The notes beneath the pieces were generated by a model. The model saw only the letters and a program-made list of their open reading frames with translations, did not search any database and was not told the origin of the DNA. Source: a virus (Duplodnaviria > Heunggongvirae > Uroviricota > Caudoviricetes). Taken from it: a stretch of 16,498 bases of DNA. Numbering within the stretch: position 1 is the first letter of the stretch; every line of letters begins with the position of its first letter. The translations under genes were made by a program, and so were the position numbers. Below are positions 12,397 to 13,132 of this stretch, in pieces. The DNA lies in the IMG/VR virus record IMGVR_UViG_2728369591_000008, positions 1-16,498 of that record. One strand, 5' to 3'.

Positions 12397-12924
12397 ATGT
12401 TGATGAGTAAAGCCGAATACGCCAAATACAAAGGCGTAAGCCGCCAGACAGTTTACGACTGGATCGAGAAAGGCGAAGTGATCATGTCTGGCAAAAAAAT
12501 TGATGTGGAGGCGACAGAGCAGCGGAACAGCCCACCGGCACAGGGGAAAGACACCGTTTCTGAAATGTGGCCAGAAAGAACGCTGGAAATGACGTGGGGC
12601 GAGTTCTGGAAAGCAGTTAAGGCCAGAGACGGTATAATCCCTGCGCCAGTAACGGACGACGACATACAGCAACGTGTGCTGGATGCAGCCGGGGAATTAG
12701 ACTGGGAAGTGCAATTTCTTGATGATGGCGGGATTTGGATGGATGACAGCGATGCTGAGTTTTATTTCGAGCAATATGATCTCAGGCAGAATGCCGAACT
12801 GGTGATTGGTACGCTGCGACGTGAGGTCTGTTATGTGGCTGATGCTTGTCCTGACGAGCTGGATAACTGGAGCGAAGCCGGACTAAACGCCCTGGCTGAA
12901 TGGGAAAAATCAGACCATCAATGA
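12397..12924 (+). CDS. HTH DNA-binding protein, terminase-small-subunit-like N-terminus (175 aa); candidate packaging-redirection or regulatory protein
   Basis: N-terminal MSKAEYAKYKGVSRQTVYDWIEKGEV resembles the HTH found at the N-terminus of small terminase/excisionase-type proteins; acidic C-terminal half; RBS GAGG 12386..12389 before ATG 12397. Confidence 0.6.
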   Translation: MLMSKAEYAKYKGVSRQTVYDWIEKGEVIMSGKKIDVEATEQRNSPPAQGKDTVSEMWPERTLEMTWGEFWKAVKARDGIIPAPVTDDDIQQRVLDAAGELDWEVQFLDDGGIWMDDSDAEFYFEQYDLRQNAELVIGTLRREVCYVADACPDELDNWSEAGLNALAEWEKSDHQ

Positions 12925-12928
12925 CATC

Positions 12929-13132
12929 AAAAAGTGTCAAGTTGAGCAGCTTGCCAGGTTGACACTTTACACTCTGAACGCGAAAAAGTGTCAACCTCGC
13001 TGTAAACCCCGCCGTTACTGGCTTTGCGCCAGATTTACCACGTCAAAAAACCGGAAAATCGCGAAAAGTGTCAAGTTGCCATGCTTAGAAATGCTAAGGT
13101 TTGATAAGGTTTTTCGCGAAAAAGTGTCAACC
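12929..13132. repeat. Five copies of CGCGAAAAAGTGTCAA(C/G) motif (four direct, one inverted) downstream of the TerS-like gene
   Basis: Copies at 12929..12944, inverted 12958..12971, 12979..12996, 13059..13078, 13115..13132; non-coding; candidate packaging-recognition or activator-binding array. Confidence 0.55.

Follow-up and report, generated by a model that had tools for sequence, protein, structure and literature searches.

How does a phage satellite have its own DNA packaged when it carries no packaging genes that can be recognised as such? Many Gram-negative islands resembling phage-inducible chromosomal islands (PICIs) lack recognisable packaging genes and have been filed as 'type C' or as possibly defective (PMC11773190). 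The question is raised here by the region 12397-13132 of a 16,498-nt stretch of DNA (IMG/VR record IMGVR_UViG_2728369591_000008; the whole stretch is called the window below). In this region the gene for a 175-aa protein, named HTH175 here, is followed by a compact array of five copies of AAAGTGTCAA. The island around it is judged, from its genes and layout, to be a PICI-like phage satellite of Enterobacterales. The region is best explained as a DNA-packaging address module of this satellite, comparable to Rpp or to a small terminase subunit (TerS), an explanation in which our confidence is about even. As such, the HTH175 module is a concrete packaging candidate for one widespread group of islands.

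Domain structure of HTH175

The start of the gene was placed at position 12397, because the homologues all begin with MLMSK and a GAGGTG Shine-Dalgarno sequence is present 6-7 nt upstream of the ATG. A longer reading from an ATG at 12379 is possible, but received no support from the homologues. A first-pass annotation, made from the sequence alone, had described the N-terminus as a TerS-like helix-turn-helix (HTH) and proposed a profile and structure comparison with small terminases and satellite packaging proteins. This comparison gave a divided answer. All profile matches of HTH175 fell within the first ~40 residues. Residues 1-42 matched PHROG 57, 'terminase small subunit', with an E-value of 4e-6, the match spanning only positions 11-57 of the 199 in the profile, and the N-terminus matched Pfam HTH_17 and an 'excise' profile below threshold. 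In a pairwise comparison residues 3-40 were 45% identical to TerS of Serratia phage BZS1 (E 3e-9). The AlphaFold model (pLDDT 89) consists of a winged HTH (wHTH) at residues 1-44, a disordered linker at 46-55 and a compact alpha/beta domain at 60-170, in a domain region of 60-175. Fold neighbours of the DNA-binding domain in a structure search were TerS, RppC, Xis, Cox, BldC and AlpA. A fold search of BFVD with HTH175 gave no match at E <0.001. A phmmer search of all PDB chains, RppC (6hn7_A) included, gave none at E up to 10, neither to Rpp nor to TerS, and no sequence relation to P2 gpM was found.

The N-terminus of HTH175 is thus a homologue of the DNA-binding domain of Nu1-type TerS. The earlier description of the N-terminus holds, for residues 1-42 only. 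HTH175 itself is judged not to be a small terminase, because the DNA-binding domain is all that is shared and the C-terminal two thirds form an orphan fold. The C-terminal region by which TerS oligomerises and binds TerL, as recognised by a full-length profile match, was absent from HTH175; full-length matches to PHROG 57 were obtained, unlike with HTH175, for BZS1 TerS and for a protein of satellite locus L134 described below. A HMMER pass over 1.84 billion representatives found the C-terminal domain in 17 clusters only. Fifteen of these were proteins of 64-184 aa, the size range of the family and its fragments (two are among the HTH175 homologues), and the remaining two, weak partial matches to proteins of ~2,600-2,800 aa, we take to be spurious. 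Homologues of HTH175 formed 105 clusters, all from Enterobacterales and nearly all named 'hypothetical'. Residues 1-42 were nearly invariant among them, and the remainder drifted to 35-60% identity. No copy of the gene was found in phage records by tblastn and blastn, or in plasmid records.

The repeat array and its spread

Exactly five copies of AAAGTGTCAA were found in the window, all inside 200 bp (12931-13130) and numbered R1 to R5 in Table 1. Four are direct and one is inverted, so the five copies next to the 175-aa gene were as the first-pass annotation had described them. By chance 0.06 copies would be expected from shuffled sequences, and 0 of 200 shuffles reached five. Identical 18-mers, CGCGAAAAAGTGTCAACC, are present at 12979 and 13115, the copy at 13060 (CGCGAAAAGTGTCAAG) has one A fewer, and copy 1 (CATCAAAAAGTGTCAAG) and the inverted copy are without the CGCG. 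The longer unit first proposed, CGCGAAAAAGTGTCAA(C/G), is therefore right for two or three copies and wrong for copy 1 and the inverted one. Over 66 distinct sites in related loci the consensus was aAAAGTGTCAA(C/G)(C/T).

Two further elements lie between the repeats. The spacer element GCCGTTACTGGCTTTG was kept in the arrays of Escherichia, Raoultella, Pantoea, Erwinia and Serratia and in 8-9 of 23 diverged loci; it had no match in phage records, and an IMG/VR scan for the spacer element CCRTTACTGGCTTTG gave chance-like matches only. The element ATGCTTAGAAATGCTAAGGTTTGATAAGG was kept across genera and in 10-14 of the 23 diverged loci, and the TATCAAACCTTAG within it may be a site for integration host factor (IHF). 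No match was obtained when the array was compared with phage and plasmid records by blastn or when the region was scanned against Rfam, and a literature search with the motif string returned unrelated primer matches only. The array is distinct from the origin iterons next to the primase gene.

Immediately 3' of the HTH175 homologue the core motif recurred in loci of Escherichia, Rouxiella, Raoultella, Pantoea, Serratia, Erwinia and Buttiauxella. Across these genera the pattern of orientations, + - + ... + +, was kept and the core was invariant while the flanking bases diverged; the position of R1 was kept in about 70 related loci. Among the 89 HTH175-type loci having enough downstream sequence, at least two exact 9-mers were present within 400 bp downstream in 68 and at least three in 59. 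At least two were present in none of 233 control loci (0/114 P2/P4-like, 0/119 unrelated viral). Of 5,426 complete E. coli genomes, 166 (~3%) contained the array, always in the chromosome and up to six times per genome, and array-bearing islands were also found in Klebsiella, Serratia, Pantoea and others. The repeats are thus a conserved cis element that travels with the TerS-type domain.

Some individual loci deserve mention. E. coli ETEC1747 (NZ_CP122722.1, H38) had six separate array matches in one genome, which suggests several islands of the HTH175 type in one cell. In two loci of Erwinia tracheiphila (L010, L094) an insertion sequence (IS) with a transposase of ~320 aa was inserted in the 3' end of the HTH175 homologue, which is shortened to 159 aa, and the array lies 1.6 kb away. 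Covariation of recognition helix and site within the family was considered and rejected: GTGTAAA variants occurred in Pantoea with the helix unchanged, which points to drift.

Sister satellites with the repeats in the cosB position

A scan of IMG/VR for the + / - motif pair recovered the window-type islands and a second family of eight satellites (L108, L129, L134, L136, L153, L156, L158 and L163). In this family the AAAGTGTCAA array lies 15-60 bp upstream of a gene for a protein of 186-209 aa, the N-terminus of which is of the HTH175 type (for example MSLMSVSQYAKHAGMSRQALYTWE and MKTLSISKYAEHAGVTRQTIYDW). The L134 protein is a small terminase that matched PHROG 57 over the full length (residues 1-180, E 2.7e-23); it was 40% identical to the Nu1-type proteins annotated as TerS in Serratia phage BZS1 and Citrobacter phage phiNP. 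The BZS1 record opens at position 1 with the 12-nt cohesive end GCATTGCGCGCC, terS follows at position 75, and in both phages GGTAACA occurs three times between cosN and terS. The phage cosN, GGGCATTGCGCGCCGCG, precedes the array in eight of eight second-family satellites, exactly or with 1-2 changes. Further upstream a cosQ-like ATGGGTCCTTCC was present, exact in L136 and with one mismatch in L153 and L163, and a looser cosQ relative was read from the sequence in L134. The resulting order is cosQ - cosN - AAAGTGTCAA repeats - terS.

The second family thus has the lambda architecture with the cosN of the helper kept and cosB replaced, in other words a natural cosB swap, of which no description was seen in the papers found by literature search. 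The locus L136:7262-8141 may serve as an example. Because the repeats occupy the cosB position in these satellites, the AAAGTGTCAA repeats would be the R-sites of a satellite-private cosB, and the likeness to a small terminase with cosB noted in the first-pass annotation was strengthened. The recognition helix differs along with the site: (S/T)RQxxYxW was found in the AAAGTGTCAA-linked satellite proteins and SRKTVTxW in phage TerS. The swap, with cosN kept and cosB exchanged, would in this way define the DNA word that the TerS-type domain reads. Altogether the comparison gives good evidence that a TerS-type domain has its R-sites in the repeats and that the repeats originally served packaging recognition. 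The primases of L153 and L156 were 76-77% identical to that of the window, that of L136 68% over the part compared and that of L163 46%. This similarity places the terS+cos module and the HTH175+array module in the same slot of a related backbone.

A packaging address as the best explanation

We infer the following scheme, and with it the binding to the repeats, a contact with the terminase of a helper, which helper this is, and the point at which the DNA is cut. HTH175 would bind the five AAAGTGTCAA sites through a wHTH inherited from a Nu1-type small terminase. Binding would probably be cooperative, possibly alongside a DNA-bending protein of the host on the IHF-like site that separates R4 from R5, and the resulting nucleoprotein complex would mark the DNA of the satellite. 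The lineage-specific C-terminal alpha/beta domain would take the place of the TerS region for oligomerisation and TerL binding, and may dock onto the terminase (TerS or TerL) of a helper phage. Packaging would then begin on satellite concatemers instead of phage DNA, by the same logic as with Rpp of EcCICFT073 or the TerS of Staphylococcus aureus pathogenicity islands (SaPIs).

The scheme is supported by the homology of the DNA-binding domain to TerS, by non-random conserved repeats that co-occur with it in two gene architectures, by the cosQ-cosN-repeats-terS order of the sister satellites, and by the place of the module in the slot held by terS+cos on a related backbone. PICIs keep terS or rpp (PMC6092414) where the module lies here, on the 3' side of the replication module and ahead of the accessory genes. 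The packaging-redirection module proposed in the first-pass annotation therefore stands as far as the TerS domain and the travelling repeats are concerned, and lacks a lambda- or BZS1-type cosN or a cosQ beside the array.

A cos site was searched for in the window and its relatives. In the window lambda cosN with up to three mismatches gave chance-level matches only, and P2 cos with up to three mismatches gave none. Between the cargo and the conserved block that follows the 59-aa open reading frame (ORF) there is a 19-mer resembling a P2-family cos, GGCATGGTGGGGAGAGCAT, which matches 17 of the 19 bases of GGCGTGGCGGGGAGAGCAT. In IMG/VR GGCGTGGCGGGGAGAGCAT adjoins the portal gene of 17 P2-like phages and is also present in 84 satellite-like loci, taken by us to be P4-like, in which an integrase, a P4-alpha-type primase and/or an AlpA-like gene occurs. 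GGCGTGGCGGGGAGAGCAT is judged to be a genuine P2-family cos; the cos sequences of P2 (GGCGAGGCGGGGAAAGCAC) and 186 (GGCGTGGCGGGGAAAGCAT) were used for comparison. Three relatives (L028, L036 and L012) have the 19-mer with the canonical flanks ...GCGGGCA|cos|TGCGCGC, and L042 has a decayed copy. The 19-mer of the window may be a relic or a diverged cosN. It may have travelled with a cargo cassette, since P4-like satellites place their cargo hotspot beside cos; alternatively, some lineages may really use P2-like helpers. Another candidate, GGGCATTGCGTGCGACG at 9426-9442 inside the ProQ/FinO gene, matches 14 of 17 bases of the BZS1/phiNP cosN region and is kept in many E. coli relatives, and was set aside as a probable coincidence because it lies within conserved coding sequence.

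Several observations weigh against the packaging scheme. The C-terminal domain showed no similarity to TerS, Rpp or any phage protein in sequence and fold searches, so that contact of HTH175 with a terminase is conjecture, nor does the island have a known helper phage. Excisionases and regulators, among them Xis, Cox, BldC and AlpA, have the fold of the DNA-binding domain as well. Whereas the lambda sites are situated between cosN and the gene, the array follows the gene on its 3' side. In some loci cargo or an IS element separates gene and array, as would be expected of a trans-acting protein. Lambda cosN, BZS1-type cosN and cosQ were absent from the vicinity of the array in about 100 HTH175-type loci. 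The flanks of the 19-mer in the window differ from the canonical ones, any P2-like 19-mer was present in only 7-8 of 91 related loci, and in the complete island of E. coli ISHS7 the array was present with no recognisable cos between it and attR.

Alternative explanations

The chief rival, possible but doubtful, is that HTH175 is a transcription factor derived from a TerS-type/MerR-like wHTH, like Cox, Apl and BldC, which coats the array. It would switch on or silence transcription running out of the core island through the 59-aa ORF and towards the cargo, and its C-terminal domain would be a sensor or oligomerisation module. Such a role would suit the position of R5, which abuts a Shine-Dalgarno sequence and ATG, followed by the small ORF with its terminator-like hairpin and then by variable cargo, and it would suit the insertion of cargo cassettes immediately after R5 or within the following segments. 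It is also in line with the structural neighbours, which include the multi-repeat-binding BldC, Cox and AlpA, with the sub-threshold matches to excisionase and regulator profiles, and with the UniRef name 'Repressor' on Pantoea homologues. The first-pass annotation had named activator sites for a promoter into the cargo as its own alternative. The abutting Shine-Dalgarno sequence and small ORF agree with this, but a scan of 12200-13750 for sigma-70 promoters and terminators found none on either strand, and a TTGACA in the reverse complement of the repeat, considered as a -35 box, had no usable -10 by eye. Moreover, the downstream cargo varies between islands in content and orientation, at times lying on the opposite strand, many islands with the array lack the 59-aa ORF or have it in another place, and the same motif takes the cosB position in the sister satellites. 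An unlikely second rival makes the module a remnant or a weapon, in which the TerS DNA-binding domain was kept and no longer promotes packaging of its own element. The protein would compete for the cosB of siblings, or the array would titrate a TerS-like protein, and packaging would proceed from another site such as a P2-like cos. The lost C-terminal half of TerS, the missing adjacent cosN, the three relatives with a canonical P2-type cos and the several islands, with up to 6 arrays, that can share one genome would all fit. Most islands, however, are without any P2-like cos, and the strong conservation across genera of the gene together with an array in cis speaks for a role that concerns the DNA of the element itself.

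Two more roles that DNA-binding proteins with iterated sites can have are both highly improbable here. Were HTH175 a recombination directionality factor (excisionase) and the repeats its arm-type sites, the sub-threshold 'excise' match and the Xis-like fold would find a place. The array, however, lies 2.3 kb from attR and 12 kb from attL with variable cargo between, and hence outside any attP arm; a separate AlpA-like gene (3407-3604) adjoins int, and HTH175 has two domains and two to three times the size of an excisionase. A second replication element, like crr of P4, or a centromere-like partition site would explain why phased 10-bp sites with A-tracts are iterated beside a gene that codes for a DNA-binding protein; in P4 a second cluster of iterons lies well away from ori. 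In the window, however, the motif is unlike the origin iterons (GGTAGACAGTT) directly 3' of the primase gene and occurs nowhere else in the island, no ParA-like gene was found in profile searches, and the gene is absent from plasmid records. The array as the replication origin itself was ruled out, because distinct iterons adjoin the primase gene. A packaging address is kept as the preferred reading of the region.

Organisation of the island and the cargo hotspot

The window contains an integrative island of ~14.5 kb. The tRNA-Gly(CCC) gene at 835-908 forms its left end (attL), and the 3' end of this gene is repeated at ~15406-15422, where attR is marked by an imperfect 17-18-nt repeat, TTCCCTTCGCC(C)GCTCCA; integration was at the 3' end of tRNA-Gly(CCC). 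The order of genes is tyrosine integrase, AlpA-like HTH, AntA, DUF4222, D5/P4-alpha-type primase, ProQ/FinO and PerC, followed by several unassigned ORFs, the 175-aa gene with the repeats, the 59-aa ORF and a cargo pair. The iterons adjoining the primase gene are of the classical PICI type and are likely to be the replication origin of the island. Integrase, AlpA-like regulator, primase with iterons, att duplication and a size of ~10-15 kb make up the layout of a PICI-type satellite, and all were found. Searches of the island ORFs of the Pfam/PHROG type gave no structural-gene match for capsid, tail or lysis genes. Positions of the features are given in Table 1.

Table 1. Features of the window, in order of position (strand given where assigned)
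Feature	Position	Strand	Remarks
Tyrosine integrase gene (int)	1033-2286		From profile searches
AlpA-like ORF	3407-3604		Adjoins int; weak profile matches, annotated homologue
D5/P4-alpha-type primase gene	6915-8720		From profile searches
Origin iterons	8748-9086		Four copies of the GGTAGACAGTTGGTAGACAGTT type with AT-rich spacers, directly 3' of the primase gene
HTH175 gene, 175 aa	12397-12924	+	wHTH of Nu1/TerS type, linker, orphan alpha/beta domain
R1, AAAGTGTCAA	12931-12940	+	7 nt past the stop codon of HTH175; palindrome with R2
R2, inverted copy	12959-12968	-	Exact AAAGTGTCAA
R3	12985-12994	+	Inside CGCGAAAAAGTGTCAACC
Spacer element GCCGTTACTGGCTTTG	13011-13026	.	Between R3 and R4; candidate cleavage or accessory site
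R4	13065-13074	+	Exact AAAGTGTCAA
Element ATGCTTAGAAATGCTAAGGTTTGATAAGG	13081-13109	.	Between R4 and R5; phased yTAAGG words and IHF-like site
IHF-like site TATCAAACCTTAG	13094-13106	-	One departure from WATCAANNNNTTR
R5, last repeat	13121-13130	+	In many E. coli islands homology to the window stops exactly here and variable cargo starts
59-aa ORF	13163-13342	+	AAGGTG upstream; weak PHROG matches
Terminator-like hairpin AGCCTAAGGGTAAGGTTTTTT	13383-13403		After the 59-aa ORF; read from the sequence, not called by the terminator scan
P2-family cos-like 19-mer GGCATGGTGGGGAGAGCAT	13523-13541	+	390 bp downstream of the array; found through a relative

A related island of E. coli ABU 83972 lies between yicC and dinD and was entered only as 'PICI?' in the supplement of PMC6092414; the ISHS7 island uses another att site again, at tRNA-Thr near yagU. 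A second variable spot of the island is the region 10053-11582, which contains a 107-aa ORF and the gene of a 380-aa protein whose N-terminus is weakly lipoprotein-like, both absent from the ABU 83972 relative. Of a second 107-aa ORF (11705-12028) ABU 83972 keeps only a C-terminal remnant.

The stretch behind the array looks like a defined cargo-exchange hotspot. Comparison of 13131-13415 with eleven related loci (L002, L040, L045, L047 and L055-L061) revealed three short conserved segments, arranged as a mosaic and interspersed with cargo cassettes. Insertion points in E. coli islands were found after R5, inside the 59-aa ORF and after the terminator-like hairpin; the 59-aa ORF is kept in E. 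coli islands and split by the insertions in some. The cargo of the window (13675-15167) is a DUF4747 protein of 297 aa and a 199-aa protein, whose stop and start codons overlap, and the pair had no PADLOC match. In the same place ABU 83972 carries a 662-aa protein with an RNA-binding domain. In L012 three unassigned ORFs (332, 80 and 571 aa) precede the array, which is followed by an antitoxin-like HTH ORF and a pair resembling HicA/HicB, both recognised by eye. The cargo behind the array is probably anti-phage or defensive.

Comparison with known systems

HTH175 is most likely a protein of a previously undescribed type. Among the papers that literature searches on satellite packaging returned (on Rpp, PICIs, cf-PICIs and EcCIMP1), no title or abstract describes the HTH175 family, the array or the cosB swap of the sister family. 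EcCIMP1, a PICI with PerC and a known helper, is a different element without the HTH175 module.

Cox, Apl, Xis and BldC have the same small wHTH fold and bind multiple short repeats, in direct-repeat arrays and head-to-tail. They are single-domain proteins acting at promoters or attP, whereas the closest sequence relatives of the HTH175 domain are TerS proteins and its sites are far from att. P4-like satellites resemble the island in their D5 primase of the P4-alpha type and in the order of late region, cos-like 19-mer, cargo hotspot and attR. They differ from it in that the flanks of the 19-mer in the window are non-canonical and most relatives are without the 19-mer. Neither psu, delta and sid nor a canonical P2-family cos was found: the island ORFs had no Pfam/PHROG match to the three genes, at which no search was specifically aimed.

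With the gpNu1/cosB system of lambda (R3-I1-R2-R1), and with BZS1 and phiNP, HTH175 shares a homologous DNA-binding domain. A further likeness to lambda cosB is that the short R-sites are several, lie in either orientation and enclose an IHF-like site; the order cosQ-cosN-repeats-terS is another, in the sister satellites though not in the window. HTH175 differs in having neither the C-terminal half of Nu1 nor a terL partner and in the position of the array 3' of the gene; the site is AAAGTGTCAA in the window and GGTAACA in BZS1 and phiNP. The SaPI small terminase (TerS_S) redirects the TerL of the helper to the SaPI pac site (PMC6092414). A specificity subunit encoded by the satellite and a recognition site private to it are common to both systems. 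SaPI TerS is a complete TerS homologue, however, and works in headful packaging, which fits the second family (L134) and not HTH175.

The Rpp proteins (RppA/B/C) of the E. coli PICI EcCICFT073 form a heterocomplex with the TerS of the helper, shift cos recognition and so redirect the packaging of the helper (PMC6739421). Like Rpp, HTH175 comes from a Gram-negative PICI, in which its gene lies 3' of those for replication, and has a C-terminus that is not of TerS; in both cases a PICI has a private cosB unlike that of the helper, and redirection of the helper terminase to satellite DNA is proposed. HTH175 falls outside the Rpp family, having no sequence similarity to RppC and no C-terminal helical coiled-coil region: it has 175 aa and an alpha/beta domain, compared to 139 aa and a coiled-coil dimerisation helix in RppC. 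The window has an explicit, conserved five-copy array, with no lambda-type cosN or cosQ beside it. In the part of PMC6739421 considered here the R elements of the PICI are deduced to differ from those of the phage, and no repeat array is shown. HTH175 probably works like both small terminases and Rpp.

A more tentative and rather doubtful extension of the packaging address is that the wHTH and AAAGTGTCAA form a portable address label, which related satellites have coupled to different effector halves. A Nu1-like C-terminus with a copied cosN would hijack lambda-like phages of the BZS1/phiNP kind, and the orphan alpha/beta domain would recruit the terminase of an unrelated helper, P2-like or otherwise. 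This recruitment might need no canonical cosN, and would convert a cos machine to initiation defined by the satellite. If so, ~3% of complete E. coli genomes would contain a packaging-redirection adaptor of a new class. If the orphan C-terminal domain is a terminase adaptor, it would provide a compact protein-and-site pair for the engineering of transducing particles, and a third solution to the stealing of a packaging motor, beside SaPI TerS and Rpp.

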